Origin: Methanoregulaceae archaeon
GTDB taxonomy: Archaea; Halobacteriota; Methanomicrobia; Methanomicrobiales; Methanospirillaceae
Length of the DNA: 64,000 nt
Direction of reading: 5' to 3'
NCBI GenBank assembly: GCA_039683275.1
Contig: JBDKRP010000130.1
Coordinates: 839 to 64,838, forward strand
Positions 1,218 to 54,508 of this stretch are shown here, one piece after another. The notes under the pieces are model-generated. The model saw only the letters and a list, made by a program, of their open reading frames with translations, ran no database searches and was not told where the DNA came from. Both the position numbers and the translations under genes were made by a program. Each line of letters begins with the position of its first letter. Position 1 is the stretch's first letter.

Positions 1218-2276
1218 CTACATCACCAGGCACTCGGCAATCTTGTCTGTCGGGAGGTTCGATTCCTTCCCCCGGGCAATCGCACGAAGATTGGTCACTT
1301 CGTACTTCTTCTTTTCCAGGTACACGAGAATCGGATGAATCGAGAACGGCGTACGCTTCGACATCCGCTCCATCTGCTCCAGCTGGACGCGGGTGAGGGC
1401 TATTTCGATGTCCCTGACCTTGCGCTCCTTTTTCAGGCTTTCCAGGAGATCGAGAAGCGCTTTCAGCTTGACTTTCCGCATCAGGGAGTCGATAAACTCT
1501 TCATGCTGCGGGATACTGTTCAGCTGCTGGAGCTCGTCGACCGAGAAACTGCCGCCCGGCACCATGATCTCACGTCCATCCTCCTCGAATTGATCGGCAC
1601 GGAGCCGGAAGAGGGTCTTGATATTTTTGATGTCAATATCAAGTTTTATGAACGCAAGGAAGAGATCCCCGCCTTTTACGCCGCTCTTTGCTTCTGCAAT
1701 CAGGTCGGCGTAAAATTCCTTGTAGAGTTCATTTTCGAGACGGGCGAAGGATCCGCTCTCCATCGCCGGCTGGAACTCCCGCACGAGGACGGGATACAGC
1801 CGGGTGTCCTTGAGAGCGTCCATAATCCGGTCCGGAGAATCCTCATTGAGCAGCCGGTCAAGGAAAACCCGGTCAAGGCTCCCTGCCGGGATCAGGACTT
1901 CCTTGATCTTCCCGGGCTTTACACCCTGGATTTTACCGCGGATGATCGTGAGGACATTCTGGATATCCCATCTCCGGAGATAAGCTTTCGTGAAATGCTT
2001 GAGGTTCCCCGGAGTGATCTGCAGGATGCGCTGGTACTCTTTTGCAAGGTTCCAGCTGACCGCGACCTCGATAAGATTCGTTCCCCTGAACGCAGTCGCG
2101 AGTTCGTCGATCTCCTGTTTGTACTCCGTCTCTTCGATGAACCGTGCAATCTCGGGCAGGCTCATGTTGAGAAGCCTCTGGTACTCTTCGCGGGGAATGA
2201 GCTTCGCCTTCCGGACACGCATACGCGTGCAGACGTAGATGTAGGGCGCTGGTCCGGCCCCACTCACTTCAGGCAT
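1218..2276 (-). CDS. atpC: A-type ATP synthase subunit C (V-type d homologue)
   Basis: 352-aa ORF directly abutting atpF (1217/1218). Length and operon position fit subunit C. Confidence 0.85.
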   Translation of the reverse strand: MPEVSGAGPAPYIYVCTRMRVRKAKLIPREEYQRLLNMSLPEIARFIEETEYKQEIDELATAFRGTNLIEVAVSWNLAKEYQRILQITPGNLKHFTKAYLRRWDIQNVLTIIRGKIQGVKPGKIKEVLIPAGSLDRVFLDRLLNEDSPDRIMDALKDTRLYPVLVREFQPAMESGSFARLENELYKEFYADLIAEAKSGVKGGDLFLAFIKLDIDIKNIKTLFRLRADQFEEDGREIMVPGGSFSVDELQQLNSIPQHEEFIDSLMRKVKLKALLDLLESLKKERKVRDIEIALTRVQLEQMERMSKRTPFSIHPILVYLEKKKYEVTNLRAIARGKESNLPTDKIAECLVM

Positions 2277-2288
2277 AAACGTTCCTCC

Positions 2289-2867
2289 CTATCCAAAGAG
2301 TGTATCTGACGCATCCTTCAACCCTGACTCCCAAATCCGGTTCAGGAATGTGCGGTAACTGTAGTCAATCGAGAGCTCACTGTCAGCGCTTTCGATTACG
2401 ATACCGCCATCGATATCGATTGCCTTCCCTGTGGAAAAACCCTTGAACGCACCGTTCCCTGCGATAACCTCCCTGAGAACCGCAAGGTCGCGTTCGTTGC
2501 ACCGGACGATCCCGGCAGGGATCTCCTTCTGGGCTTCCAGGAGGAGTTTTCCAATGGCTTCCCGGTGGAAGCTTGCGGGCAAACCGGCGATCTTTTTGAG
2601 GGCGTCTGCGTAGACGCTGTCAAGGAGCTTTTTCTGGGTGTTGAGGACTTCGCGCTTCACCACCAGGTGAGCTGCTGCGACATCCTGCCCGATAATGTGC
2701 CCGGTCTGTTTTTCCACTTCAGCTTCCATTGAGAGCTTGGTGGACTCGGCACGCTTCTGGGCGTCCGCGAGAATCTTTGCTACCTCATTTTGTGCGGAAG
2801 CGCGGATCTCCCCTGCCTCCTTCTGCCCTTTTGCCCGTATTTCTTCGACGACCGCTTCCAGTCCCAT
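2289..2867 (-). CDS. atpE: A-type ATP synthase subunit E (peripheral stalk)
   Basis: ORF 2289-3023 trimmed to the internal Met (MGLEAVVEEIRAKGQKEAGEIRA...), giving 192 aa. The N-terminus is a charged Ala/Glu/Lys coiled coil. The longer ORF would overlap atpK. Confidence 0.8.
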   Translation of the reverse strand: MGLEAVVEEIRAKGQKEAGEIRASAQNEVAKILADAQKRAESTKLSMEAEVEKQTGHIIGQDVAAAHLVVKREVLNTQKKLLDSVYADALKKIAGLPASFHREAIGKLLLEAQKEIPAGIVRCNERDLAVLREVIAGNGAFKGFSTGKAIDIDGGIVIESADSELSIDYSYRTFLNRIWESGLKDASDTLFG

Positions 2868-2877
2868 GGTCTCTCCT

Positions 2878-3141
2878 TCAGAATAATAAGAGGAGACCAA
2901 CGACGAGACCGAAAATGACGATCGTTTCCGGGATGACCGTAAAGAGAAGCCCGAGACCAAAGAAATCCTTGTTCTCGGCAATTGCGCCGACTGCTGCCGC
3001 TCCGATACCCATTTCAGCGACACCGGTACCGATACCGGCGAGGCCGACTGCGAGACCTGCGCCGACTGCCTTCATTCCCACTGCCGATGCCTGTGCTACT
3101 GCGACTTCAGTCGCTACGGTTGCTACTGCTTCTGTTGCCAT
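2878..3141 (-). CDS. atpK: A-type ATP synthase proteolipid subunit K (c)
   Basis: 87-aa Gly/Ala-rich hydrophobic hairpin (GLAVGLAGIGTGVAEMGIGAAAVGAIAE...VIPETIVIFGLVV) with a conserved carboxylate in helix 2. Confidence 0.85.
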   Translation of the reverse strand: MATEAVATVATEVAVAQASAVGMKAVGAGLAVGLAGIGTGVAEMGIGAAAVGAIAENKDFFGLGLLFTVIPETIVIFGLVVGLLLLF

Positions 3142-3143
3142 GA

Positions 3144-5114
3144 TTATTCCTCAGTAAATCTTCGTTTCATTCCAAATGGATTGTACTTCTTTCCCCCACC
3201 CTTGTAGAACTTGGTGAAGAACTCAACATAGTGTAAACGGATTGAGTGGAGACCTCCTCCGAGGATCCCCAGTGCGGTGTTCATCGCGTGCCCGATCAGG
3301 AACACGAGAATTCCGACAATTATCATTACGATGCTCATCAGGGAGAAATTCTCAAGCGATGGCTCGATGAACATCCCGATGGACATATAGTTCACGACCA
3401 TCGCGATAGCGACCGATGAGAGTCCCACCGCAACAAGACGGGTATACGAGAGCACGTGGCTGATGATCGTGGGTAACTCCACGAGTTCAAGTGCCGATTC
3501 CCGGGCGATACAGATCACACCGACAAGGATAAGGATGCCCCCGATAAGCGCTCCGAGCGTTATGCCGGCTGCAATTACAGGAAGTCCCGTCAGATCGATC
3601 ATATAAGGGATAGCAAAATTCGCCCAGATAGCGATCAGAATTCCCCACATCACGGCGAGCCAGCCGAAGTTGGCAAGGACTGCTTTCATCCGGTGTTCGC
3701 CATGATCCTGCCGGGCATGGTTAACCATGCCGAGTCCGCGGCCCAGCGTTATGTGCAGGACACCAATCCAGACGGACAGGACCAGGAGTGCAGGAATTGC
3801 AGCATCCGAAGCTCCGGCTTCGCCGCCGATACCCAAGTGCCGGCTGAAGATGAGGGGATGCCACGGAAGTTCGAATCCTAAGAATTCACTGAACAAGAGA
3901 CCGAAAATGATGGTTATGATGCTTGCGTTCCGGAGAGAGACAAGGAGCATTTTTCCTTCTTCTCCCTTCAGGAATTTCCGGAGCCCGAAGCACATCACAA
4001 GGAGAATCAATCCGTACCCGACATCTCCCAGGATGAGCCCGAAGAAGACCGGGAAGACGATCGAGACCATGAGGGTCGGATCGACCTCGGTATACCGGGG
4101 CCGGGAATAAACGTCCATTAACATCTGCGTCGGTTTCGCGAAGTCCGGGTTATGGTACTCCACAGGAACCGAATCGTGTTCAAGGTCAACTTCAATCTCG
4201 CTCGTAAAGATCTTTCCACCGGTTACCCGGTTTAAGCTTTCAGTAACCTCAGCGAGCTTTGCAGTCGGGACCCATCCCTCAGCAACAAACGTCTGGGCGG
4301 TCGTTGCGAACCGGAGGGGGGCCTCGGCCTGTTCCACATCTGACGACAGCAGCTCTTCGCATGCCATCAGGAATTCGGAGCGGCCGGTTTTGATCTCGTC
4401 AAGCTTCTTCGTGATCGATTCCATCTGGCTCCTGGCAGACGCTGCCTGCGAGTTCAGGTGGTCGATCCGTGCCTGTGCCGGACCGGTCTCTTCCGGTACC
4501 GGAACCGACTGGAAGCCGGCCGGGAAAAGCGCATTTTCAACTTCCTTTGCATGCTGCACAGGAGTGAATACCACGATGAAACTCGCCTCCTTCGAAGGGG
4601 CAAAATATTTCTCGTGGGGCGCTGCAATCGGGACATCTGTTTTGATGTACCCGGCGAAAACCGCAAGGCTCCGGTACCCGCGATACAGCTCCATATCAAC
4701 GGGAATACCGGCGAAAGGCCGGAGCATTTCTATCTTGCCTTCGGCCTCTTTTACCTGGGCATCCAGCTTCGAGCGTTCTGCGATAAGATCCTCGATCTCA
4801 CGCTCAAGGGCAGGGAGATCGGATTCTATCTTCGTTTTGATCGCAGATGACCGCTCCTTCCCGCTGGCTTCCATCTCCTCTTTTTTGAGAGAGAACGCAT
4901 TCGCGATGGAACGGATCTTGATCAGTTCGCCCGATTTTTCACTGGCGCCCGCAAGAGGAGTACCTATCCGGAACCCGGTATAGGTTTCCTTACCCTGCTC
5001 GACAAATTCCTCGATATGAAAGAGATTGTGACGGTACAGTTCGCGGATGACCGGCTCCATCTGCTCCTTGGAGGCTGCGATTAAGAGCCGGCTCATCTGC
5101 TCAGGCTTGAACAT
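3144..5114 (-). CDS. atpI: A-type ATP synthase subunit I (a-type stator)
   Basis: ORF 3144-5183 trimmed to MFKPEQMSRLLIAASKEQ.... It has a soluble coiled-coil N-terminal half and a multi-TM C-terminal half, and sits in the expected operon position. Confidence 0.85.
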   Translation of the reverse strand: MFKPEQMSRLLIAASKEQMEPVIRELYRHNLFHIEEFVEQGKETYTGFRIGTPLAGASEKSGELIKIRSIANAFSLKKEEMEASGKERSSAIKTKIESDLPALEREIEDLIAERSKLDAQVKEAEGKIEMLRPFAGIPVDMELYRGYRSLAVFAGYIKTDVPIAAPHEKYFAPSKEASFIVVFTPVQHAKEVENALFPAGFQSVPVPEETGPAQARIDHLNSQAASARSQMESITKKLDEIKTGRSEFLMACEELLSSDVEQAEAPLRFATTAQTFVAEGWVPTAKLAEVTESLNRVTGGKIFTSEIEVDLEHDSVPVEYHNPDFAKPTQMLMDVYSRPRYTEVDPTLMVSIVFPVFFGLILGDVGYGLILLVMCFGLRKFLKGEEGKMLLVSLRNASIITIIFGLLFSEFLGFELPWHPLIFSRHLGIGGEAGASDAAIPALLVLSVWIGVLHITLGRGLGMVNHARQDHGEHRMKAVLANFGWLAVMWGILIAIWANFAIPYMIDLTGLPVIAAGITLGALIGGILILVGVICIARESALELVELPTIISHVLSYTRLVAVGLSSVAIAMVVNYMSIGMFIEPSLENFSLMSIVMIIVGILVFLIGHAMNTALGILGGGLHSIRLHYVEFFTKFYKGGGKKYNPFGMKRRFTEE

Positions 5115-19078: not shown

Positions 19079-20674
19079 ATGCTAGCTGGACAACCTATTA
19101 TCATTCTTAAAGACAACGTCGAGCGCAACTATGGGCGTGAAGCCCAGCGCTCCAATATTACCGCAGCAAAGGCTATCGCTGGAGCAGTGCGCAGCACGCT
19201 CGGCCCCCGTGGCATGGACAAGATGCTCGTCGGGTCCACCGGAGACATCGTTATCACGAACGACGGCGCGACCATCCTTGAGGAGATCTCGGTCCAGCAC
19301 CCGGGTGCAAAGATGGTTATCGAGGTCGCAAAGACCCAGGATGACGAAGTTGGCGATGGCACCACGACTGCAGTAGTCCTTGTCGGTTCCCTGATGGAAC
19401 AGGCAGAGATACTGCTGGAGCAGGACATTCACCCGACCGTCATTGCCCAGGGATACCGCCTTGGTATGGAGAAGGCAATCGAGATTATAAACAGCCTTGC
19501 AATCTCCGTATCTCCCACCGACAGGAAGATCCTGATGAAGATCGCCGATACCTCCATGACCGGGAAATCCATCGAATCTGTCAAAGGCAAAATCGATGCG
19601 ATTGTCGTAGACGCTGTCATGTCGGTTGCCGAAAAGGTAAACGGGAAAATCGTTGTCAGCGAAGACGACATCAAGATCAAGAAACAGAAGGGCGCTGCAA
19701 TGGACGATGCCGAGCTTATCAAGGGCATTGTCATCGACAAGTCCCGTGCAAACGACCAGATGACGAAGAGCGTGAAGAACGCAAAGATCGCGCTCATTGC
19801 TACCCCCCTTGAGATCACGAAGACCCAGGTCAAGGCAAAGATCAAGATCTCGACCGCAGACCAGATCAACGCCTTCTCCCTGCAGGAGCAGGAGACATTC
19901 CACCGGCTCGCGGACAGTATCATTGCGAGCGGCGCAAATGTCCTCCTCTGCCAGAAGGGTATTGCAGACCCGGTCCAGTTCTACCTTGCAAAGGCGGGTA
20001 TCTTTGCCATCGAGGACGTGAAAGAGGACGATATGAAGTTCGCGGCAAAGTCCCTCCATGCGAATATCGTGAACAAGCCGGAAGACCTGACCTCGAAGGA
20101 TCTCGGCCAGGCAGCGCTTGTCGAAGAAGAGGACGATGCCGAAATCACCAAGATCTCAGGCTGCAAGAACCCGAAGGCGACCACGATTCTCCTTCGCGGA
20201 ACCTCAGACTACCTCATCGACGAGCTTGAGCGGGCGGTCGTTGACGGGACCAGCGTCGTAATTGATGCAATGGAAGACGGGACCTATGTCGTGGGGGGCG
20301 GTGCAGTCGAGACCGAGCTCCTGCTCAAACTGAGAAACTATGCAGAGAGCGTCGGCGGACGTGTGCAGCTTGCAATCGAAGCCTATGCAGACGCTTTCGC
20401 GGTGATTCCGCGGACCCTTGCGGAGAACTCCGGCCTGAATGCAATTGACAAGCTCGTCGAGATCAAGACCGCCCATGCAAAGGGCAAGAAATACGCCGGG
20501 CTCAATGTGTACACGGGAGCCATCATCGACATGAATGCGGAAGGAGTCTACGAGCCGCTCCGGTCCAAGCGCCAGTCAATCCAGAGTGCAACCGAGACCG
20601 CAGTCATGCTCATCCGGGTGGACGACATGATGATCACCCAGAACAGGCCCCGGTCTCCGGGACCCATGGCATAA
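19079..20674 (+). CDS. ths: Thermosome subunit (group II chaperonin)
   Basis: 531 aa with the hallmark motifs [12 protein letters not shown] and [11 protein letters not shown]. Confidence 0.95.
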
Positions 20675-20793
20675 ATCCCGTCCAGAACGATCCTTCGCGT
20701 GAAAGGATTGGACCGGGATTCCCCGGTTCCGCATCTTTTTAGTACTCTCCCTTCGATACATAGTAGGGAAGAAACGAGCACTCATCCCTGCGT

Positions 20794-20878
20794 GCCGAGG
20801 TAGTCTAGCCCGGGAAGGCGGTAGCCTCGAAAGCTACTGGCGCCTTGCGCCTCGGGAGTTCAAATCTCCCCCTCGGCG
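20794..20878 (+). tRNA. tRNA-Ser (anticodon CGA), long variable arm
   Basis: Hand-folded. Acceptor GCCGAGG/CCTCGGC with G discriminator, anticodon stem GTAGC/GCTAC with loop CTCGAAA, variable arm GGCGCcttGCGCC, T arm GGGAG-TTCAAAT-CTCCC. A TTTT run follows. Confidence 0.9.
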
Positions 20879-20988
20879 TTTTCAACAGAGGGATCCTGAT
20901 CCAATTCTGAAATTTTCCGAATCACTTTTCCGGTCATTCCGATATCGGTTACCTGCTGTGCCCATCTCTCCGACTCGGGTAAGCCGGA

Positions 20989-21006
20989 CCGGTAGAGAAC
21001 CGTGCC
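20989..21006 (+). promoter_or_regulatory. Conserved motif CCGGTAG-N6-GTGCC upstream of cassette copy 1
   Basis: The motif ends 37 nt before the ATG at 21044. The same motif ends 36 nt before the ATG of the paralogous gene (37458-37475, minus). Confidence 0.35.
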
Positions 21007-21043
21007 AAAGAAGTTATCTCCCGTCCCCGGAAAAAGGTATACC

Positions 21044-21523
21044 ATGCAGTACCGGATGGTATGGGCGACACTCATTTTCATCCTCGCTCTTCTACCTCCG
21101 GTTGCCGCTGGCGGAGAGGTCCCATCGGATCTTCCCCGACTCCTTCTGGCCCCGGTCAACGCATCCCCGGATCAGGAGTTCCTAATGAACGGGACGCCGG
21201 ATTACTCAGCCCGGAGGGAACCGGGATGGTACCCCCTTTCCGGTACAACCCGGTTTTTCCGGGATACCCTCCCCTCCGGAACACAGCGATACTGGATGGA
21301 CATTACATGGAATGATCCGTCCCGTAATCTCCAGGTCACCATCTTCTCTCCCGAGGGTCCCCTTGGCCCGTACTCGAATGTTGCAAACGGCAGGATCGAT
21401 GGCAGGATCTTCCTTGCTATGGAAAAAGATCCCGCACTCCCGGCCGGGAACTGGTACTACGAAGTCAGGAATGTGCAAGGTACCAATTACAGTATTGGCA
21501 TATACCGGAACAAGGGGATCTGA
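21044..21523 (+). CDS. Secreted protein with C-terminal PPC-like (pre-peptidase C-terminal / P-domain-like) beta-sandwich, copy 1
   Basis: ORF trimmed to MQYRMVWATLIFILALLPPVAAG (signal peptide). The C-terminal block RYWMDITWNDPSRNLQVTIFSPEGPLGPY...AGNWYYEVRNVQGTNYSIGIY is present. It is a paralogue of 36723-37421. Confidence 0.65.
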   Translation: MQYRMVWATLIFILALLPPVAAGGEVPSDLPRLLLAPVNASPDQEFLMNGTPDYSARREPGWYPLSGTTRFFRDTLPSGTQRYWMDITWNDPSRNLQVTIFSPEGPLGPYSNVANGRIDGRIFLAMEKDPALPAGNWYYEVRNVQGTNYSIGIYRNKGI

Positions 21524-21526
21524 AGC

Positions 21527-22264
21527 ATGCGGAAAAAAGGTGTGGTATTTCTTATCATCCTGCTGCTCGTCCCGACGGTAATCCTCCCGACGACCGGTGG
21601 GGAAATCCAGGTGCAGTCAGGGTACATCGTTCCTCCGCCGGCCGGGGCAATACCGGTTTCTCCGGCAGAGGTGTCCTTCTGGGAACTGCCTCTCTGGATC
21701 ATAGTCCTCCAGATAGTACTCTTACCCGGGGAATGCCTTCTCCTCCTTAAATTCCTGGTTCCCCTGCGCTACCGGGAGATCTCCTCACAAAACGTTCTTT
21801 TCCAGGATGTTCGGGCCCGGATCTACAATACAATACGGAACAACCCCGGCATCCACCTCCATGGGATCTCCCAACGGACCGGCATTGGTATCGGGACCGC
21901 CCGGTACCATCTCAGGATGCTCCTCCGGACCCACAAGGTCACTCTGAACCGGGACGCCGGGTCCATCCACTTTTTTGAAAAACGTGGTGCCTATACCGGA
22001 CGCGAACAGGAGATCCTGAAACATCTTCAAAATCCAACCGCAAGGAAGCTGATCCATACAATTCTTGAGAATCCGGAGGCAAGCCGTCACCACCTGGCAG
22101 CTGCGGCCGGTATCTCCGGTTCATCGGTCACCTGGCATATCAAACGGCTGGAGGCCGACGGTATAGTCGCATCAGCCCGGATCGGAAGGACCGTTGCCTA
22201 TACGGTTCCTTCGGAAACCCTGGAAAAAATCCGCGAATATGAGCGGATATCCGGGGAAACCTGA
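21527..22264 (+). CDS. Membrane-tethered transcriptional regulator with two winged-helix domains, copy 1
   Basis: 245 aa with an N-terminal hydrophobic helix, a Pro-rich loop and a second TM (LPLWIIVLQIVLLPGECLLLLKFLV). Two wHTH units follow (IYNTIRNNPGIHLHGISQRTGIGIGTARYHL; ...AAAGISGSSVTWHIKRLEADGIV). It starts 3 nt after the preceding stop. Confidence 0.7.
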   Translation: MRKKGVVFLIILLLVPTVILPTTGGEIQVQSGYIVPPPAGAIPVSPAEVSFWELPLWIIVLQIVLLPGECLLLLKFLVPLRYREISSQNVLFQDVRARIYNTIRNNPGIHLHGISQRTGIGIGTARYHLRMLLRTHKVTLNRDAGSIHFFEKRGAYTGREQEILKHLQNPTARKLIHTILENPEASRHHLAAAAGISGSSVTWHIKRLEADGIVASARIGRTVAYTVPSETLEKIREYERISGET

Positions 22265-22349
22265 CCTCCCCTTCGGCCACACCGGCACTCCTCCATTGGT
22301 CGCATTTGCATACTTTTTTCTTCCTGCCGCCGGAATACACCGGAGCGAT

Positions 22350-22835
22350 ATGGTCACGCTCCGGGCACTCGCCCCTTCCGATATTCCTGTCATCAAGGCC
22401 TGGCCCGCCTACCCGGACGAATTTCTGGATCTCGATTACGCCCTGCGGGACGGGGGCTGGCTGGACACGTACGGGGCGAGAGCAGATACCCGGATACTCG
22501 TGGCAGAATCAGACGGATGCCTCGTTGGGTTTTCCATTCTTACTGATAATGAGGGGGAATCTGCGGAATTCAGGATCGCCCTGCATCCTTCCAGGATTGG
22601 TACCGGGTTCGGTAAAAACCTGGCCCTCCTCACGCTTGCCAGCGGGTTTTCCTGCCCGGACACCCTCCGGATCCAACTGATCGTCCGGAAGAACAATCCG
22701 CGTGCCCGGCGACTGTACGAACGGATCGGTTTCGCTCCTGCCGGGGAATGCTCGAAAGAAATCGCAGGACGGTCCGTCGGTTTTTACCGGATGGAGATTG
22801 AAAGAGATCGGTTTTACGAGGTAAACCAGAAATGA
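22350..22835 (+). CDS. GNAT-family N-acetyltransferase
   Basis: ORF trimmed to MVTLRALAPSDIPV.... It has the acetyl-CoA motif RIGTGFGKNL and a C-terminal NNPRARRLYERIGF. Confidence 0.8.
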   Translation: MVTLRALAPSDIPVIKAWPAYPDEFLDLDYALRDGGWLDTYGARADTRILVAESDGCLVGFSILTDNEGESAEFRIALHPSRIGTGFGKNLALLTLASGFSCPDTLRIQLIVRKNNPRARRLYERIGFAPAGECSKEIAGRSVGFYRMEIERDRFYEVNQK

Positions 22836-23395
22836 AGGATGCCCTCTGCGTTATCGATGTCCAGAACGAGTATTTTACAGGAAAGCTCCCTGTCACCTTT
22901 CCGGAAGGAAGTTTCCGGAATATCCTTCTTGCAATGGATATCGCAATTGAAAAGGAAATTCCGGTCATTGTCGTCAGGCACGTGAATCCGGATCCGTATG
23001 CCCCGACATTTGCCCGGGGAGGCCGGGGAGCGACGCTCCACGATGAGATCCTGCGCCGCCATCGGGATTTTCTTATCGAAAAACAGCTGCCAGGAAGTTT
23101 CACGGGGACCGGTCTTGAGGCCGGGCTCCGGTCCCGGGGCATCGACACCATCACGATCTGCGGGTACATGACCCAGATGTGCTGCGATACCACGGCCCGG
23201 CAGGGATTCCATCTTGGTTTCTCGGTCAATTTCCTCTCGGACGCGACAGGAACCCTGGCAATTTCCAACCCTGCCGGCAGTATATCTGCAGAAGACCTTC
23301 ACCGGGCAATCCTGATCACGCAGGCAATGCGGTTCAGCCGCGTAATTCCGACAGCGCAGTGGGTGGAGGAAATCCCCGCTCAGGTACCTGGCTGA
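22832..23395 (+). CDS. Isochorismatase-family cysteine hydrolase
   Basis: 187 aa with the catalytic pattern VIDVQNEY ... ICGYMTQMCCDTT. It overlaps the GNAT stop by 4 nt. Confidence 0.85.
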   Translation: MKDALCVIDVQNEYFTGKLPVTFPEGSFRNILLAMDIAIEKEIPVIVVRHVNPDPYAPTFARGGRGATLHDEILRRHRDFLIEKQLPGSFTGTGLEAGLRSRGIDTITICGYMTQMCCDTTARQGFHLGFSVNFLSDATGTLAISNPAGSISAEDLHRAILITQAMRFSRVIPTAQWVEEIPAQVPG

Positions 23396-35207: not shown

Positions 35208-35867
35208 TTACCACACCCATCCCGTCACCGGCTCTGTCAAATCCTGCCCTTCTTCCCGGGCTGAATTCACCCGCGATGAGACCGGATACGCCTGCATCTC
35301 ATCTGCCGGGGGAGGAGAGATTATGCTCTCCAGATCTTCAGGCAGGATCCGGTTCCCCGACAACCATGTCGTTTCCTGATCTTTCGCAAGAATCACCGGC
35401 ATCCGGTTGTGGATGGCGCCGACGAGCGAGTTCGGTCTCGTGGTCAGAATAGAATAGGCCGGAGAGGTCCTGTCATCCGGTCCCACCAGTTCTCCCCAGA
35501 GTCCCGCAAAGCCGAAGAGCTCTTTTTCCCGGAGATGCAGGAAATACGGGACATTCCGGCTCCCTTCCTTTTTCCATTCGTAAAATCCGTTTGCGGGAAC
35601 AATACACCGTTTGATCGGGATGATTGATGAGGGTACAGGATTTTCCCGGAGTGATTCGACCCGGATGTTTATCGGGAGCGCGCCCCGGGAAGAAAAACGG
35701 CCCCATTGCATCAATCTTGCCTCATTTCCGGCTGCTGCGTGCACGATTACCGGGTTTGCAGCAGAAGGGGCGATATTGAACTTCGACCGGAACCCGAGTG
35801 TCGGGTCGACTACGAGGAAACGCCGCCCGATCATGTCCACACCCCAGAGTGCATAGCGTCCGCACAT
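35208..35867 (-). CDS. SOS-response-associated peptidase (SRAP/YedK family, abasic-site sensor)
   Basis: ORF trimmed so the protein starts MCGRYAL (catalytic Cys2). The motifs FNIAPS, GFYEW and HNRMPVIL are present. Confidence 0.85.
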   Translation of the reverse strand: MCGRYALWGVDMIGRRFLVVDPTLGFRSKFNIAPSAANPVIVHAAAGNEARLMQWGRFSSRGALPINIRVESLRENPVPSSIIPIKRCIVPANGFYEWKKEGSRNVPYFLHLREKELFGFAGLWGELVGPDDRTSPAYSILTTRPNSLVGAIHNRMPVILAKDQETTWLSGNRILPEDLESIISPPPADEMQAYPVSSRVNSAREEGQDLTEPVTGWVW

Positions 35868-35965
35868 TATACTACCAGTGGTACCCGTATCAGCGATCAA
35901 TATTTCGGCGGTCCGGAGCCGTAAAACAGGTTCCTGTCCGCAGTTCCCGGACGCTGTTGCCCGGG

Positions 35966-36718
35966 TCAGGCTGCAGGAATTCCTGCTGTACCGATCCGTT
36001 GGGCAAGAATCCCGGCAACCATGGGCCGGATCTCATACGCTATCGTCCGGCCTGCGTGCCGGGTAGTAATGATCTGGTCATCCTCAAGGCGCTTCATGTG
36101 CCAAGTGACCGATGGTCCGGCAAGGCCCAGCTCCCCGGCAATTTCCTTCCGGGTCGCGTCCGGGTGGCGCACCAGAATCTCAAGGATCTCCCGGGTGGTG
36201 GAATTTCTGAGATGCTTGAGGACCCGTTGTTCATCAGGAGAGTACGTCCCGTTGTTCTCGTAAAACCTGACAGACGACGCGTCCTCTGCAAGGGTTATCT
36301 TGTGGGTCAGGAGAAGCACCCGTAGGTGGTACCGGAGGGTTCCCATCTTGAGATCCATCTCTTCCCGGAGGCCGTGCAGGTGGATTCCCGGGTTTTCCCG
36401 GATATACGTATAGATCCGGGACCTGATGGCCTGATCGAGGACGTTTGTCGTGGAGACCCGGCGGAATCCGAGATACGCCCACATCTTAAGGGAGATGAAG
36501 ATCTCAGGGGGTAGGAGGAAGATCTGGAGGGCGAGGACGGCAATCGGAAGCTCCCAGACCGGAACTGGTTCCGGTGTGCGGGGAATGGCTCCCGGGGGTG
36601 GCTGTTTTTCGTAACCGGGACGCACCACGTAATCAGTTGCGGCAGCAACAGTTCCTGCAAGGAGAAGAAGGGCAAGGGTCCCGGCAAGGATGGATGCGAT
36701 CCGGAAGGAGCTGGTCAT
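35966..36718 (-). CDS. Membrane-tethered transcriptional regulator with two winged-helix domains, copy 2
   Basis: 250 aa, collinear with 21527-22264. It shares the loop PPPGAIPRTPEPVPVWELP, the second TM and both wHTH units (IYTYIRENPGIHLHGL...; GLAGPSVTWHMKRLEDDQII). Confidence 0.7.
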   Translation of the reverse strand: MTSSFRIASILAGTLALLLLAGTVAAATDYVVRPGYEKQPPPGAIPRTPEPVPVWELPIAVLALQIFLLPPEIFISLKMWAYLGFRRVSTTNVLDQAIRSRIYTYIRENPGIHLHGLREEMDLKMGTLRYHLRVLLLTHKITLAEDASSVRFYENNGTYSPDEQRVLKHLRNSTTREILEILVRHPDATRKEIAGELGLAGPSVTWHMKRLEDDQIITTRHAGRTIAYEIRPMVAGILAQRIGTAGIPAA

Positions 36719-36722
36719 GATC

Positions 36723-37421
36723 TCACACCGAGTAGGTATTCAGGGTATAATCCCCGGCGCCCGTGCCCAGGTTCCTGACCCGGAAGAACCAATCTCCGGG
36801 TGTGAGAGTCCCGTTCCTGCCGATATCGAGAAAGATCCGGTCGTCTTCCATCAGATCCGAGGTATCATTGTACGGCCCGAGTGTCGCATCCGGTGTGTAC
36901 ACCATCAGTTCAAGATCGGTAAGGGGATCCGCCCAGTCAAGGTCGATCCATTCGTGCTGCTGGTTCTCCGGGACCGTGTCATGGAAAAATGAGACTCGCG
37001 GCACGGCAGAGACAAACACCTTCCCATTGACCGGAAGCGGGAGTTCACTTTCCGTTACCGTGACCGTTGTAAACATGTACCCCGCGCTGTTGGATGGCGT
37101 AAGGTTCACGGATATCGGGGATTCCCCTTCAGAGACGGTCACGAACATAACCTTCCGGTCGCTCCCGACGGAAACAGCATCATCCGAAAGCAGGGTGATA
37201 TTGCCGACAAGGATAGTCCGGGTACTATTTTCCCCGGGTATCGGAACGGGACTCGTCGCACCATATGCCGCTACGGTCACATTCTCAACACACCGGACAA
37301 AAGAATCGTTCCCGGACAGCCCGTCGCATGCTATTGCATACCCGGCCGAATACGCGGATCCCGTGGTAACGAGTGCGAGAAGAATCGCAGGCAGGGCCCA
37401 TACTACCATCCGGTACTGCAT
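36723..37421 (-). CDS. Secreted protein with C-terminal PPC-like beta-sandwich, copy 2
   Basis: ORF trimmed to MQYRMVVWALPAILLALVTTGSAYSAG. It has a sequon-rich middle region (NVT, NST, NIT, NLT). The C-terminal block HEWIDLDWADPLTDLELMVYTPDATLGPY...GDWFFRVRNLGTGAGDYTLNTY is homologous to copy 1. Confidence 0.65.
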   Translation of the reverse strand: MQYRMVVWALPAILLALVTTGSAYSAGYAIACDGLSGNDSFVRCVENVTVAAYGATSPVPIPGENSTRTILVGNITLLSDDAVSVGSDRKVMFVTVSEGESPISVNLTPSNSAGYMFTTVTVTESELPLPVNGKVFVSAVPRVSFFHDTVPENQQHEWIDLDWADPLTDLELMVYTPDATLGPYNDTSDLMEDDRIFLDIGRNGTLTPGDWFFRVRNLGTGAGDYTLNTYSV

Positions 37422-37457
37422 GCTCAGATCTCTTTTCCTGAGATACATAAGGTATCC

Positions 37458-37475
37458 GGCACAATCAGCTACCGG
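37458..37475 (-). promoter_or_regulatory. Conserved motif CCGGTAG-N6-GTGCC upstream of cassette copy 2
   Basis: The plus strand reads GGCACAATCAGCTACCGG. On the minus strand the motif ends 36 nt before the ATG at 37421. Confidence 0.35.
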
Positions 37476-37685
37476 TTGAAACAGGGCAGGTACGGGCAGG
37501 ACCAGGTTTTTCCTGGAATTGTGCCCCGGTTTCGTGCGCATCCGGATCCTGCTATAAGAATCATCCGGCACAGTCCTCTTCTTCAGGTTTTTCCGGTAGA
37601 GACCTGTGCGAGAACTGCTTTTGTATCCCCCGCTGCATCAGGATCAACCCCACGTTCCGGACTAGCCCGGACAGGAGTACACTAC

Positions 37686-38603
37686 ATGATCGAACTGGAA
37701 CATCTCACAAAAGAATACGGAGGTATCCCTGCAATACGGGACCTCACGCTCAGGATCGGGCCCGGGGAGATCTTCGGGCTGCTCGGGCCGAACGGCGCCG
37801 GGAAAAGTACGACCATCCTGATGCTGATCGGCCTCATCGAACCGACCTCGGGCCGGTGCCTTGTCGAAGGCATCGATGTCGCCCGCGATCCCCGGGGGGT
37901 CAAGCAGCGGATAGGGTACATGCCCGAGGATGTCGGGTTTTACGGTACGCTCTCGGCGGAAGAGAACCTCCTGTATTTCGGCAGGCTGTACCGGATGGAC
38001 CCTGCCCGACTCATGAACCGGATCCAGGAGCTCCTCACGCTCACCGGCCTCGAAGGAGTCGCAAAACCTGTCGGGGGCTATTCCAAGGGAATGCGCCAGC
38101 GGCTCGGGCTTGTAAAAGCTCTCCTGAACGATCCCCCGGTGGTAATCCTCGACGAACCGACCGCAAACCTGGACCCGAAAGGGGTTGCCGATTACCGGGC
38201 GATTGTCGCGGGTGTTGCAGAACAGGGAAAGACCGTGATCGTCTCCACCCATATCCTCGGTGAAGTCAGCAGGGTCTGCACTACCCTCGGGATTCTCTCA
38301 TCGGGGAACCTGGTTGCCCACGGAACCTGGGAGGATCTCGGGAAGAAAGCCAGGGACGGAAATTCCGGATCGGTAACTATCCTTCTTGAGACCCGGGATC
38401 CCCTTCCCGAGCTCGATCACCCGGCAATCGCAGGAGTTGCGTACAGGGACGGCCGACTCGGGGCAACGGTGACCGCAGCGGCTGATATCAGGGACGACCT
38501 TTACGACCATCTTTCGAGCCGGGGAATCCGGATCCGGGAAATCAGCTGCAGGGAACGATCCCTCGAAGAGGTCTTCCTTTCGTACTACCAGGTGGCGGGG
38601 TGA
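37686..38603 (+). CDS. ABC transporter ATP-binding protein (ABC-2 / NosF-like)
   Basis: ORF trimmed to MIELEHLTKEYGG.... It has Walker A GPNGAGKST, signature YSKGMRQRL and Walker B VVILDEPT. Confidence 0.9.
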   Translation: MIELEHLTKEYGGIPAIRDLTLRIGPGEIFGLLGPNGAGKSTTILMLIGLIEPTSGRCLVEGIDVARDPRGVKQRIGYMPEDVGFYGTLSAEENLLYFGRLYRMDPARLMNRIQELLTLTGLEGVAKPVGGYSKGMRQRLGLVKALLNDPPVVILDEPTANLDPKGVADYRAIVAGVAEQGKTVIVSTHILGEVSRVCTTLGILSSGNLVAHGTWEDLGKKARDGNSGSVTILLETRDPLPELDHPAIAGVAYRDGRLGATVTAAADIRDDLYDHLSSRGIRIREISCRERSLEEVFLSYYQVAG

Positions 38604-39712
38604 TGGCAATGCAGGGTTCGGGTCTCATGACCATAGCACGAAAGGAGTTTTTCGACCATGTCAGGAGCAGGAAATTCCTCCTGATCCTCGGGATATTCCT
38701 CGTGATCGCAGTTGTCGGGATCATTTCCGGGGTTGCAGATTACAATAAGAGCCTCTCCACCTACAACGAGCGGATCTCGGTTGCGTCCACCTCGCCAACA
38801 CCTGATACCATGGGGGAAAAGCCTTCCATCCTCTCTGTCTTTTCGAGTGTTTCTACCTACATCGTCTTCCTGGGGGCGATTCTCGGGGTAGCAATGGGAT
38901 TCGATCTCGTTACCAAGGAGAAAGAGAGTAAATCCCTCAAGATCCTGCTCTCCCACCCGGTATACCGGGACGAAGTGATCAACGGGAAAGCGCTCGGGAG
39001 TATTGCGGCACTCGTGCTTGCTCTTGGGATCGTCCTCGTGCTCTGCCTCGCTGCTCTTCTGGTCTGCGGCATCATCCCAGATCCATCCGAGCTCTCCCTT
39101 ATAGGAGTCTTCGGGATAGTCTCCTTTCTCTTCATCTTCTCGTACTTTGCAATTGCGCTCTTCATGTCCACCATCTCAGAAGAGAGCGGGAGCGCGCTCA
39201 TCTACACGCTCATCATCTTCATCGCCCTCTCGTCGCTCCTCCCGATGCTGGCAAACGATACGGTTATGGAAACCCTGACCGGATCGCCTCCCGAGTTCCC
39301 CCGGCAGCTCATAGACCAAATGCAAACGCAGGGAAACACGACAAAATCTGTCTCGATCACTTTCGATTCTTCCGGAAACGACCCTGCATGGCAGGAATAT
39401 TCATCAAAACTGAACACATACTGGGAGAAACGCCAGGCCCTGACCGATACCATCTCGCTCTTCTCTCCGACTATGAACTACAAGAAGGTCAGTTCTTCAG
39501 TAACAAATACAGAATCCGGGAATGTTCTCTTCAGCGGGAGCGGAGACGGGATTGGAATTTCCACCACATCCTTCACAAAAGCGGGATTCCAGTCGGTCAA
39601 CGTTCAGAATATCGTGGCAGATAATCTCGAGAACATCCTTGCCCTTCTTATCTTCCCGATCCTCTTCTTCGGGCTGAGCTACCTCCGGTTCATGCGTCTC
39701 GATGTGAGGTAA
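38600..39712 (+). CDS. ABC-2 family permease (NosY-like) with large extracytoplasmic loop
   Basis: 370 aa. Its start overlaps the ATPase stop (4 nt). There are six TM segments with a loop of about 110 aa before the last TM. Confidence 0.8.
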   Translation: MMAMQGSGLMTIARKEFFDHVRSRKFLLILGIFLVIAVVGIISGVADYNKSLSTYNERISVASTSPTPDTMGEKPSILSVFSSVSTYIVFLGAILGVAMGFDLVTKEKESKSLKILLSHPVYRDEVINGKALGSIAALVLALGIVLVLCLAALLVCGIIPDPSELSLIGVFGIVSFLFIFSYFAIALFMSTISEESGSALIYTLIIFIALSSLLPMLANDTVMETLTGSPPEFPRQLIDQMQTQGNTTKSVSITFDSSGNDPAWQEYSSKLNTYWEKRQALTDTISLFSPTMNYKKVSSSVTNTESGNVLFSGSGDGIGISTTSFTKAGFQSVNVQNIVADNLENILALLIFPILFFGLSYLRFMRLDVR

Positions 39713-39723
39713 CTGGGGGGACC

Positions 39724-41187
39724 ATGCAGAGCATCGATCACGGGAAAAACCCCCTCCTCATTTTCATACTCCTCGCGATCACGCTGGCCCTTGTTCACCT
39801 CACCCCGCCGGCTTCCGCAGAACAGACATTCTCCCCGGATACCGCAATCGTCATCAGCTGCAACTCCCCTGCAAAGGTGGTCGAAGCAGGGGAGACCGCG
39901 TCCTTCGAACTGGAGGTCACGAATAATGGACAGGAAATCAACCAGAAACTCTGGTTTGAATCGTTCTATGCCAAGAAGTACGAGTGGGATGTGATCTTCC
40001 GGGACGGAAATACCCGGATCTACAAGATCGCACCGGGAACGGGCGAGGTCATGAAGATCAATGTCTCGGTCGAGACCGATTCCTTCTCCCCGGTCGGGGA
40101 GTACCCGATCCGGATCCATATCGGCTCCGGTTATTACTGGGTATATGTCACCATATCAAAGACCCACACCGGGGAGAAAGGAACCCTGAAACTGAATATC
40201 GTAGATAAAGACGGGGCAAAGATCCAGGGAGCAAAGATCACCCTGCTCCGGACCGATGAATCATCGCCTCCGGATCGGGTCATGAGCACGGCTGACGGGA
40301 CGGTCTCAACAGAACTCGACCAGGGGGAATACGACCTCACGATAGAAAAAGCGGGGTACAAGAGCGCTGACAGGAAAGACATCCGGATCCGCGGCGGCAT
40401 CACGACAGATGCCGGGACCGTAATGCTGGAAAAGGATCTCTTTGCAGCAGAAGTTACCGTGAAAACACCCTCCATCACGACCACGATCAGTACCAATCCG
40501 AAGTATTCCTTTGTCATCCGGAATATCGGGAGAAGCGACGACACCTATCATCTTGGAATAGATACTCCTCCGGCAGGCTGGTATTTCCGGTTCCGCGACA
40601 GCACGAACACCGGAACGGATATCTCGGAGATTTTCATAAAGGACGGGGAAGAAAAGGAACTCACAATGGAAGCGATTCCCCCGTACGGAACCCGGGCCGA
40701 CGACTATTTCTTCACGCTCGCAGTCGATTCCTCCCGGGAGGTATACCGCGAGAACCTGAGCGCTGCGATTAAAGGCGACTACGATCTCCGGGTCTATGCC
40801 GGACAGTACCAGTATGATGTGAACAAGGGGGGAACCTTGGATTTCCCGCTCACGATCTCGAATGCAGGAACGGCCGGGGCACTCACGAATATCAAAGTCT
40901 CGATCTCAGCTCCGGACGGATGGAACGCAGACGTCGACCCGGAAACGATAGCGGGAATCGAACCCGGGGTGTCCGCAAAAGTGAATGTCCGGATAGTCCC
41001 TCCTGCGGATATCGTCGCAAGCGATTACAAGGTTAACGTGAAGGTGGTATCGGACCAGACCGAGAAAAGCGACGATTTCCGGGTTGTCGTTCACGAACAG
41101 TCTTTCTTCACAATCCTCGGGATAGGTATCATCGTCTTGATAGGAGGCGGGGTCTATCTTGCATTCCGGAAATATAACCGTCGATAA
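39724..41187 (+). CDS. Cell-surface protein with repeated beta-sandwich (NEW3/CARDB-like, carboxypeptidase-regulatory-like) domains and C-terminal TM anchor (COG1470-like)
   Basis: 487 aa with signal peptide LLIFILLAITLALVHLTPPASA. It has repeated motifs of the type GETASFELEVTNNG / GGTLDFPLTISNAG and a C-terminal anchor FFTILGIGIIVLIGGGVYLAFRKYNRR. Confidence 0.7.
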   Translation: MQSIDHGKNPLLIFILLAITLALVHLTPPASAEQTFSPDTAIVISCNSPAKVVEAGETASFELEVTNNGQEINQKLWFESFYAKKYEWDVIFRDGNTRIYKIAPGTGEVMKINVSVETDSFSPVGEYPIRIHIGSGYYWVYVTISKTHTGEKGTLKLNIVDKDGAKIQGAKITLLRTDESSPPDRVMSTADGTVSTELDQGEYDLTIEKAGYKSADRKDIRIRGGITTDAGTVMLEKDLFAAEVTVKTPSITTTISTNPKYSFVIRNIGRSDDTYHLGIDTPPAGWYFRFRDSTNTGTDISEIFIKDGEEKELTMEAIPPYGTRADDYFFTLAVDSSREVYRENLSAAIKGDYDLRVYAGQYQYDVNKGGTLDFPLTISNAGTAGALTNIKVSISAPDGWNADVDPETIAGIEPGVSAKVNVRIVPPADIVASDYKVNVKVVSDQTEKSDDFRVVVHEQSFFTILGIGIIVLIGGGVYLAFRKYNRR

Positions 41188-53062: not shown

Positions 53063-54499
53063 TCAGGCGTCGCCTTTCTCTTTCGTGAACGCTTTTAAGT
53101 GGGATTGGTAGGTTCCGTCGACAAACGTGACCTTCCGCTCGCAGGAGTGTTCCCCATCGATGCAGACCGGATAGCTGGATGTCAGGCATCCGGTGCAGAG
53201 TTTCTCTTCCCTGAATCCGATGGATTCTACGAGGGCTTTCAGAGATATGTGATGAAGGGAATCGGCGGTGATACTTGCCCGCACCTGCTCCTCGTTTTTG
53301 TCGCTTGCGATCAGCTCGGCCCGGGTGGGCAGGTCTACGCCAAGGTAACAGGGGGCCTTGATAGCGGGAGAGCCGATCCGCATATGGATCTTCTTCGCTC
53401 CAGCTTCCCGCATAATCTCGATAATACGCCTGGAGGTGGTGCCCCGCACAATGGAGTCGTCGATAAGGACAACTTCCTTGTCCCGGAGGTGTTCTTTGAT
53501 GGGGTTCAGCTTGATCCGTACCGCCTTTTCCCGTTCCCGTTGGGTGGGCATGATGAACGTCCGTCCCATGTACCGGTTCTTCATCAGGCTCTCGACAAAG
53601 GGAATCTTCGAGCCCTGGGCAAACCCGATAGCGTACGCGGTTCCCGAGTCCGGAACCGCCCCCACGGAATCCGCTTCCACCGGGCATTCCTCGAAGAGTT
53701 TCTTCCCGATATTCCGCCGTACGTCATAGACAAGGACGCCATCAATCACCGCATCGGCACGGGCAAAATAGATGTATTCGAAGATGCAGTGTGCGGTACA
53801 GCTGCAGACCGCAATCTGGGTGGCATGAACGCCATTCTCGTCAAGGCGTACCAGTTCCCCGGGTTTAATGTCCCGGATGAACGTACCGCTCAGGGCATCT
53901 ACGGCAACACTCTCCGAGGCAACCATGTATCCGCCCTGTGTCTTTCCAAGACAGAACGGTTTGATACCGAGGGGGTCCCTGAATGCGTAGATGACCCCGT
54001 TGATCATCATGACGACCGAGTACGAACCCCGGAGCCTGCGCATACAGAGGTGGACGGCATCCTCGATACATCCGGACCGGTTGAGTTCGTCGATTAAGAC
54101 CTTCGCGATGACCTCGGTATCGGTCGTGGTCGTGAAGATCTGCCCCCGCTGCTCATACTCGTGCCGGAGCTCCTGGGTGTTCACCATGTTCCCGTTGTGA
54201 GCGATGGAGATCACGAAGTTCTTGAACCGGAAGTTGAGGGGCTGGATATTCTCGGGAAGGTTCGGTCCCGTGGTCGGGTACCGGACATGCCCGACACCGA
54301 CGTTTCCTTTCAGACCTTGTAAAATAGCGGGTGTAAAAACGTCAGCTACGAGGCCATGCTCCTTGTGTTTATAGAGACATGAGCCCTCGTAGGTTGATAT
54401 TCCCGCGCTCTCCTGGCCACGATGCTGGAGCGCGTACAATGCGTAGTAAAGAGGTAACGATACTCCGCCAGCATCCACGATGCCAACGATACCGCACAT
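53063..54499 (-). CDS. purF: Amidophosphoribosyltransferase
   Basis: 478 aa with N-terminal nucleophile MCGIVGI, PRT loop VVLIDDSIVRGTT and a C-terminal Cys cluster. Confidence 0.95.
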   Translation of the reverse strand: MCGIVGIVDAGGVSLPLYYALYALQHRGQESAGISTYEGSCLYKHKEHGLVADVFTPAILQGLKGNVGVGHVRYPTTGPNLPENIQPLNFRFKNFVISIAHNGNMVNTQELRHEYEQRGQIFTTTTDTEVIAKVLIDELNRSGCIEDAVHLCMRRLRGSYSVVMMINGVIYAFRDPLGIKPFCLGKTQGGYMVASESVAVDALSGTFIRDIKPGELVRLDENGVHATQIAVCSCTAHCIFEYIYFARADAVIDGVLVYDVRRNIGKKLFEECPVEADSVGAVPDSGTAYAIGFAQGSKIPFVESLMKNRYMGRTFIMPTQREREKAVRIKLNPIKEHLRDKEVVLIDDSIVRGTTSRRIIEIMREAGAKKIHMRIGSPAIKAPCYLGVDLPTRAELIASDKNEEQVRASITADSLHHISLKALVESIGFREEKLCTGCLTSSYPVCIDGEHSCERKVTFVDGTYQSHLKAFTKEKGDA

Positions 54500-54508
54500 G
54501 TTCCTACT

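Follow-up and report, generated by a model that had tools for sequence, protein, structure and literature searches.

A contig stretch from the metagenome-assembled genome (MAG) of a Methanoregulaceae archaeon, 64 kb long and hereafter called the window, carries a pair of adjacent genes, sec1 and reg1, which encode a predicted secreted protein and a predicted membrane-tethered regulator with two winged helix-turn-helix (wHTH) domains. We propose, with roughly even confidence, that this pair is an archaeal two-protein ("co-component") transmembrane regulator, which would control itself and, where one is present, a neighbouring exporter operon. In the NCBI record sec1 is "hypothetical protein ABFC24_09470" (MEN6611062.1), and reg1 is 100% identical to MEN6611063.1, a "winged helix-turn-helix transcriptional regulator"; the pair is real, conserved, and more interesting than these two labels imply.

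The two genes form a compact cassette. sec1 (21044-21523, + strand) encodes a protein of 159 aa with a predicted signal peptide, a disordered linker of ~45 aa bearing N-glycosylation sequons, and a C-terminal β-jelly-roll (~68-159) that resembles the pre-peptidase C-terminal (PPC) domain. Its stop codon (TGA, 21521-21523) is followed by AGC and then by the ATG of reg1 (21527-22264, + strand, 245 aa), a gap of 3 nt, just as the initial annotation had described, and a Shine-Dalgarno-like GGGGA run lies 8 nt 5′ of the reg1 ATG. With both genes in the same frame and only TGA-AGC between them, stop-codon read-through fusing sec1 to reg1 was considered, and rejected since in orthologues the two genes have an overlap of 4 nt and use different frames. 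An oligo-T run, TTTTTTCTT (22314-22322, + strand), stands 50 nt 3′ of the reg1 stop; as read from the sequence, it is likely an archaeal terminator signal, which would make cassette 1 a two-gene unit. The module recurs at 35966-37421 on the - strand, again in agreement with the first description. There, sec2 (36723-37421, 232 aa) has a predicted signal peptide, a sequon-rich extra N-terminal region and the same jelly-roll as sec1, and reg2 (35966-36718, 250 aa; MEN6611078.1), a paralogous membrane-tethered tandem wHTH regulator, starts 4 nt past the sec2 stop. The two regulators are 49% identical (E 4e-72), and the secreted proteins 37% identical across their last 87 aa (E 4e-21). What the initial annotation described from the sequence is thus right throughout, while its interpretation is supported in part.

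Coupling of the two genes is conserved across genomes. A scan with the regulator alignment, using one genome per GTDB species, returned 23 loci; in 16/16 Methanomicrobiales genome loci with >40% identity (L007-L022), which cover Methanoregula spp., uncultured Methanoregulaceae, Methanosphaerula subterraneus and Methanogenium cariaci, a jelly-roll gene lies directly upstream of the regulator on the same strand. Across the 19 loci in which both the secreted and regulator genes were resolved, the intergenic gap stays between -4 and +10 nt, and on a related metagenome contig both window cassettes are syntenic on one contig. The association also holds when approached from the secreted side: in 3/3 informative reverse look-ups, starting from the distant jelly-roll proteins P0033, P0045 and P0056, the next gene encodes a regulator of Pfam family PF24266 anchored by a transmembrane (TM) helix, and the contig of a fourth look-up stops 21 codons into a gene that starts like the regulator signal peptide. 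Tight coupling persists across genera, down to about 25% jelly-roll identity, which supports the gene pairing proposed in the initial annotation.

The stronger claim, that such a regulator is always preceded by a secreted partner, holds only within this Methanomicrobiales clade. L023, a TM-anchored regulator relative at 32% identity, has neither a secreted partner nor the S-G-Y motif described below. No secreted partner accompanies the relatives L024-L027 (Nitrosopumilaceae, Methanosarcinales, Woesearchaeota and Thaumarchaeota), which are soluble and about 180 aa long, and L028 (Thorarchaeota), a 248-aa open reading frame (ORF) with an N-terminal hydrophobic segment, lacks the partner as well. 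A profile of the wider PF24266 family gave 407 matches, of which the best 120 are nearly all 177-191 aa long; among the same 120, no name goes beyond "wHTH transcriptional regulator". The literature on HVO_0163 and COG3398 yielded no functional study, HVO_0163 appearing only in an acetylome list. The predicted membrane extension and the secreted partner co-occur in one Methanomicrobiales clade.

Both regulators are, on their sequence scores, genuine members of Pfam PF24266 (HTH_HVO_0163_N), which matches reg1 at 94-162 with 57.3 bits and reg2 with 60.7 bits (cut-off 31). The second wHTH is matched by HTH_24 (reg1 169-214, 64.7 bits; reg2, 60.9 bits; cut-off 21.9), and the NCBIfam model HTH_metalloreg (ArsR/SmtB-type) scores 51-54 bits on the regulators, slightly below its cut-off of 55. 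An AlphaFold2 (AF2) model of reg1, built on 13 sequences, shows one helix at 4-22 and another, long one at 56-82, with residues 23-55 between them modelled at low confidence, and two winged helices spanning 94-242 with a predicted local distance difference test score (pLDDT) of about 90. Foldseek matched reg1 to tandem-winged-helix proteins (ScpB, the SelB C-terminus and RPC62) and to single ArsR/SmtB repressors, and a sequence profile search of the PDB placed wHTH 1 with a 77-aa archaeal protein (5duk, E 5e-14) and wHTH 2 with ArsR/SmtB/CzrA. The two winged-helix units proposed at the outset are therefore upheld by Pfam, by the AF2 model and by Foldseek.

Membrane topology is where our interpretation departs from the earlier one, which had two TM helices separated by a Pro-rich loop of ~30 aa. 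The hydrophobic peaks of reg1 (residues 5-23 and 56-74) and the conserved Pro-rich segment between them (~24-55) are there, but the first hydrophobic segment is likelier a cleaved signal peptide. In the orthologue alignment, its sequence is variable, with small residues at its end (most Methanoregula have VSA|QEY; AAA|PDY, VAA|ATDY and TGG|EIQ also occur), and conservation of the regulator begins exactly past those ends, with the pattern x-Y-x-V-x-S-G-Y-x-x-P-x-P ... P-x-P-V-x-F-W-x-L-P. Because the first segment ends in a signal-peptidase-type site with conservation starting right after it, the mature regulator is more likely a single-pass protein with a free N-terminal outside peptide of ~30 aa than a two-TM hairpin with a loop. 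On this reading reg1 would consist of a probable signal peptide (1-~24), the conserved outside peptide (~25-55), a TM helix (56-82), wHTH 1 (PF24266, 94-162) and wHTH 2 (HTH_24/ArsR-like, 169-214). Across 18 pairs, the V, G, P and pre-TM L-P of the outside peptide are invariant, as are a Glu in the middle of the TM helix, within P-[PG]-E (P-G-E in reg1), and an Arg after it (R-R-V or R-Y-R-E), the latter in agreement with the positive-inside rule. The stretch from the TM helix to wHTH 1 is only about 12 residues long.

The secreted protein escapes standard domain models. sec1, which starts MQYRMVWATLIFILALLPPVAAG, has a single N-terminal hydrophobic peak (residues 5-23) with Arg4 ahead of it, sequons at N39, N49 and N148, and zero Cys, much as expected of the signal-peptide protein with N-x-S/T sequons first described. 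A lipobox or archaeosortase-type anchor on sec1 was ruled out, as the protein has no Cys and no C-terminal hydrophobic tail. Neither sec1 nor sec2 matches any Pfam or NCBIfam model, and Pfam PPC (PF04151) matches neither of them even at E <= 1. A word-indexed protein search gave only 4 close relatives of the secreted protein, and it took an exhaustive HMMER profile search with the C-terminal block to reveal the family, which numbers 204 representative clusters at a threshold of E <= 1e-3 and 58 at the stricter E <= 1e-10. Nearly all members are 140-400 aa long, with a signal peptide and the domain at the extreme C-terminus, and they share the core W-x-D-L-x-W ... P-D-x-x-L-G-P-Y-x-D-x-x-D-G-x-x-D-G-R-I-F-L ... 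G-x-W-Y-Y, in which the D-x-x-D-G-x-x-D-G-R motif appears to resemble a Ca-binding loop.

Structure prediction points to where this family belongs. In the AF2 model of sec1 (59 sequences), residues 68-159 form seven strands at pLDDT >90, and the 45-aa linker falls below 50. Against the PDB, the top Foldseek matches of this domain are the C-terminal β-jelly-roll of the Thermococcus subtilisin Tk-SP (9ues, 3afg; E 2e-5 to 9e-5), joined by the protease C-terminal jelly-rolls of CspB (4i0w) and, further down, KP-43 (1wmd); overall the matches range from E 2e-5 to 3e-3 with about 92-112 residues aligned. The jelly-roll profile also reaches giant Pfam PPC-repeat proteins, such as P0061, which carries nine PPC stretches (307 bits); the stretches matched in these giants score just 18.7-21.7 bits with Pfam PPC, for which the cut-off is 25.9. 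A weak PPC match is on record for the family member P0056. On the model, then, the sec1 domain is a diverged, free-standing representative of the protease-C-terminal jelly-roll (PPC-like) fold class and not a Pfam PPC member, so that the PPC-like character first suggested for the C-terminal ~90 aa of sec1 is recovered in the fold but not in a Pfam match. No peptidase domain is present in sec1 or sec2, where just the signal peptide plus a linker or extra β region precedes the jelly-roll. Among the giant proteins found by the profile, 4-10 jelly-roll-related repeats occur in P0061 (2994 aa), P0135 (3188 aa), P0131 (3615 aa), P0078, P0086 and P0105, of which P0061 and P0078 are Pfam PPC proteins.

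Evidence on what the module might control comes from upstream of the secreted gene, where 18 aligned loci share conserved DNA at a constant spacing to the ATG. The consensus of this box, GTAGA-N4-YGTGCC(A/G)GAT-N3-TTATNTAT, ends about 22 nt ahead of the start codon, a spacing that suggests a TATA box with an upstream element directly against it, and a transcript with no leader or almost none. In cassette 1, the box is GGTAGAGAACCGTGCCAAAGAAGTTATCTCC (20991-21021, + strand), with GTAGA-N4-YGTGCC plus a TATA-like TTAT; it ends 22 nt 5′ of the sec1 ATG and scores 27.5 bits with a position weight matrix (PWM) made from the alignment. The box of cassette 2, GGTAGCTGATTGTGCCGGATACCTTATGTATC (37442-37473, - strand), faces sec2 and scores 39 bits. 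Only these two cassette promoters exceed the shuffle maximum across the window, and, as both sat in the training set of the PWM, the scan informs only on the absence of other sites.

Cassette 2 stands head-to-head with a three-gene operon, comprising an ABC transporter ATPase (PF00005, 37686-38603, + strand), an ABC-2 family permease (PF12679, ABC2_membrane_2; 38600-39712, + strand), and a 487-aa surface protein (39724-41187, + strand) with a predicted signal peptide, CarboxypepD_reg, CARDB and NPCBM_assoc β-sandwiches and a C-terminal TM anchor. The same arrangement is found in 11/16 genome loci, as well as in L030/L031 and L004. When 14 divergent intergenic regions were aligned, an inverted copy of the box was seen beside a TTTTTAA/TTTTGTA TATA box, facing the ABC operon, with a third, partial box between the other two. 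In the window, the inverted copy is GGTAGAGACCTGTGCGAGAACTGCTTTTGTATC (37595-37627, + strand), beginning GGTAGAGACCTGTGCGAG, and the middle box is GAAGAGGACTGTGCCGGATGATTCTTATAGC (37551-37581, - strand), a partial copy with its own TATA-like sequence, which is oriented as sec2 and kept in the 14-region alignment. The window contains 5 matches to the core pattern GTAGNNNNNYGTGC, where 0.32 would be expected and 0/100 shuffles reached 5; 3 of the 5 are the promoter sites just described. In the 264-bp divergent region, YTGTGCS is present 4 times, with 0.09 expected. The two halves of the box are unlike and lie about one helical turn apart, and the winged helices of the regulator are likewise two and unlike; that one regulator monomer reads both halves would be an attractive inference. 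As operators, the remaining core matches, at 35862-35875 and 54494-54507 (both - strand), were rejected: they fall on ATG-TGC (Met-Cys) start codons and were judged chance. The 35862 match belongs to a SRAP gene just 3′ of reg2, adjoining cassette 2, and the 54494 match to a 478-aa ORF.

Three elements that the initial annotation overlooked are thus a probable cleavable signal peptide on the regulator, the divergent ABC-2/surface-protein operon and the shared promoter box, and the latter two appear to point to what is regulated. The operon is not universal. It is missing beside L001, L008, L009, L018 and L021 as well as cassette 1, and in L022 the sole ABC gene nearby is an ABC-2 permease downstream. 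Cassette 1 is a paralogous copy without the exporter operon, which within the window keeps the self-promoter box only.

Starting from the observed anatomy, co-inheritance, and conservation and placement of the box, we infer docking, ligand sensing, the box-binding protein and the sign of regulation. The secreted jelly-roll would be the sensing or ligand-binding half, docking on the exposed N-terminal peptide of the regulator and altering how the regulator oligomerises or how stable it is. The two half-sites of the box would then be read by the two unlike wHTH domains, and from the membrane surface, given that a mere 12 or so residues lie between the TM helix and wHTH 1; in this way the domains could tune the access of TBP and TFB to the module's own promoter and to that of the exporter. 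Even with so short a linker, co-translational insertion could tie the locus to the membrane, since all the putative targets encode membrane or secreted proteins. We posit the further possibility that the jelly-roll clamps the outside peptide on cue, that reading of the bipartite operator switches on the ABC-2 exporter/surface-protein operon as an envelope-defence operon, and that the pair embodies an independent, inverted-topology version of the ToxR/ToxS logic and the first archaeal co-component system; this fuller scenario is tentative, and we hold it to be somewhat less probable than not.

Several points weigh against the co-component interpretation. Signal-peptide cleavage, for both the secreted protein and the regulator, was judged by eye from the -3/-1 rule plus the onset of conservation, and the outside peptide is of low confidence in the reg1 monomer model (pLDDT 43-51). 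The secreted protein has no evident anchor and might be lost by diffusion, an uncomfortable property in a co-sensor. Cassette 1 stands without an adjoining ABC operon, and the PWM found no third box above the shuffle maximum in the window. Finally, the box overlaps the B recognition element (BRE) and TATA, and part of its conservation may be core-promoter conservation; it could also serve another factor, or basal promoter architecture, and not this regulator.

Would the regulator need the secreted protein at all? It could instead sense via the membrane or the exporter, in the manner of BcrR or the Bce modules, with the invariant mid-membrane Glu detecting a membrane-level signal or the activity of the ABC-2 transporter, and the jelly-roll protein serving as an effector of the envelope function of the exporter and CARDB surface protein, co-transcribed only for co-regulation. 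We regard this as unlikely. Firmicutes offer well-known cases of sensors that depend on an ABC transporter and have hardly any outside loop (BceS/BceAB), and in BcrR a one-component regulator bound to the membrane governs an ABC exporter. The divergent linkage of the ABC-2 operon in most loci with a promoter box in common, the invariant P-[PG]-E with its buried Glu in the TM helix, an outside segment too short to fold alone, and a secreted protein without an anchor all fit this view. However, the secreted protein and regulator are paired at every clade locus and are thus more constant than the ABC operon, which is missing at cassette 1 and five loci; a sensor working purely within the membrane would have no use for so strongly conserved an outside peptide of ~30 aa; and L023, which has no partner, also lacks the S-G-Y motif.

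A different alternative, and a variant of the co-component interpretation rather than its opposite, is that the tether is the OFF state and that the regulator is released by regulated proteolysis, in the style of anti-sigma factors or TcpP/TcpH. A signal would lift the partner's protection, an outside protease would trim the N-terminal peptide, an intramembrane protease would cut the TM helix, and the freed tandem wHTH protein would diffuse to its operators. With ~12 residues between the TM helix and wHTH 1, reaching DNA from the membrane is sterically demanding, and the TM helix combines conserved helix-breaking Pro/Gly with a Glu, features that substrates of site-2 proteases often carry. There is also a precedent in TcpH, which shields TcpP from proteolysis (PMC11323476; PMC10269533, Table 1). 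Set against these points, no protease gene lies within the conserved neighbourhood of the examined loci, no sequence mark of a cleavage site was seen, and the candidate targets are all membrane or secreted proteins, making action from the membrane feasible; release by proteolysis is, in our estimation, improbable. Least of all do we favour mere adjacency with no signalling meaning, in which an ordinary PPC-like protein of the cell surface or of adhesion, or a remnant protease domain, just happens to be in one operon with a local autoregulator. PPC-like domains are indeed common accessory modules in secreted proteins, and neither protein has a tested function, but tight coupling kept across genera to about 25% jelly-roll identity, the joint occurrence of TM extension and secreted partner in this clade, and a conserved outside peptide that requires explanation together make it very improbable.

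If the pair does act as a co-component system, its closest parallels lie in bacteria. VtrA/VtrC and ToxR/ToxS are bacterial co-component systems (PMC9214523), with TcpP/TcpH listed in PMC10269533 (Table 1). As in these three, a tethered winged-helix factor that itself has little sensing domain or none is matched with an extracytoplasmic β-rich partner encoded by an adjacent, often overlapping gene, in a fast-evolving module whose partner is missed by standard domain models. Several features nevertheless set the archaeal pair apart: the outside peptide of its regulator is N-terminal and the DNA-binding part C-terminal, the reverse of the ToxR/OmpR-type order; the DNA-binding part is a tandem of PF24266 and ArsR-like wHTH domains, not OmpR/ToxR-type; the partner gene is upstream, not downstream; and where the bacterial partner is a membrane-anchored lipocalin-like barrel, the archaeal one is a PPC-like jelly-roll made with a predicted cleavable signal peptide. 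The host, moreover, is a methanogenic archaeon, and homology is not implied. By this comparison the module is not a member of the bacterial co-component superfamily, and its closest parallel would be a functional one.

Other known systems each share a part of the design. The two-wHTH layout of reg1 and reg2 is common to PF24266 tandem wHTH proteins, but the relatives found outside Methanomicrobiales are soluble proteins of 177-191 aa, making the signal peptide, outside peptide and TM extension clade-specific. The PPC and protease C-terminal domains (PF04151; 3afg, 4i0w, 1wmd) have their fold in common with sec1, whose domain, unlike theirs, has no peptidase attached, is free-standing after a signal peptide, and is linked to a gene for a regulator. 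In BcrR-BcrAB and Bce modules of Firmicutes, a membrane regulator with a minimal outside portion sits beside the ABC exporter it controls. Cassette 2 and 11/16 genome loci similarly adjoin an exporter (cassette 1 does not), over which control by the regulator is putative; the protein families differ from those modules, however, which are not known to have a secreted partner, and the archaeal permease is PF12679-type and accompanied by an anchored CARDB/NEW3 surface protein. Within archaea, the natural comparison is ArnR, which has C-terminal TM helices and controls archaellum and pilus genes. ArnR and ArnR1 of Sulfolobus acidocaldarius are characterised membrane-bound transcription factors (PMC6396743), and the remark in the initial annotation that no characterised archaeal example was known is to that extent amended. 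ArnR is a one-component system for which no partner protein is listed, and it is the sole characterised archaeal example in that table (PMC10269533, Table 1). It is of a different family from reg1, and acts while membrane-bound, as is proposed for reg1.

Some observations from individual loci are worth recording alongside these comparisons. Outside the clade, the soluble 176-aa PF24266 regulators of a Methanosarcinales MAG (L025:3983-4513) and a Woesearchaeota MAG (L026:3986-4516) are preceded, with gaps of -4 and +1 nt, by ~120-aa proteins with four hydrophobic segments (L025:3624-3986 and L026:3616-3984), one of which has a weak DUF7471/DUF5985 match. Judging from this arrangement, PF24266 regulators in other archaea may be membrane-associated via a separate partner. 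Within the clade, a Methanoregula contig (L007) carries two complete cassettes tail-to-tail, at 1452-3066 (+) and 3079-4409 (-), of which just the first adjoins an ABC operon; several paralogous cassettes per genome seem common. In the draft genome of Methanogenium cariaci JCM 10550 (L022:3-460), the secreted-domain gene is broken into two overlapping ORFs (3-383 and 305-460), which marks a frameshift or pseudogene unless it is a sequencing error.

The surroundings of the two window cassettes add a few further details. Cassette 1 is flanked by thermosome and tRNA-Ser genes on one side and by GNAT, isochorismatase and major facilitator superfamily (MFS) genes on the other, an arrangement that recurs in a related contig except for the GNAT gene. 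The tRNA-Ser(CGA) gene (20793-20879, + strand) lies between the thermosome gene (19079-20674) and cassette 1, and the promoter box begins 112 nt past the tRNA end. Downstream of reg1 is an isochorismatase-family hydrolase gene (22832-23395, + strand); in the related contig (L001:5816-6367) the isochorismatase gene overlaps the regulator stop, with no GNAT gene between, and in a Methanoregula locus (L014:4776-5327, - strand) it is convergent with the regulator. Perhaps this gene is a further target, or it may be co-transcribed. Near cassette 2, the leader of the ABC ATPase gene contains a short GC-rich hairpin (37654-37672, + strand), directly 5′ of a GGAG ribosome-binding site, which reads TCCGG-loop-CCGGA in the window and GGCCGGAA-loop-TTCCGGCC in Methanoregula. 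Its position is kept in 9 loci, and 2 of its 6 predicted pairs show compensatory changes, with a covariation energy term of about 0, which amounts to weak support.

To conclude, archaea have, to our knowledge, no sigma/anti-sigma systems, and we know of no membrane-bound transcription factor of Methanomicrobia with a known signal, partner or target. A census finds transmembrane regulators to be enriched in precisely this group (PMC10269533). The module described here is a testable circuit from sequence alone, with a candidate sensor, a conserved 30-aa candidate docking peptide, a tethered tandem-wHTH factor and a candidate operator, and with its own operon, an ABC-2 exporter and a surface protein as the proposed output. 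If true, it would show envelope-to-transcription coupling in archaea, and would give a function to an unnamed secreted-domain family of about 200 representative clusters. The pair looks like an uncharacterised archaeal route by which a signal from outside the cell reaches gene expression, the genes concerned usually being those of an adjacent export pump.

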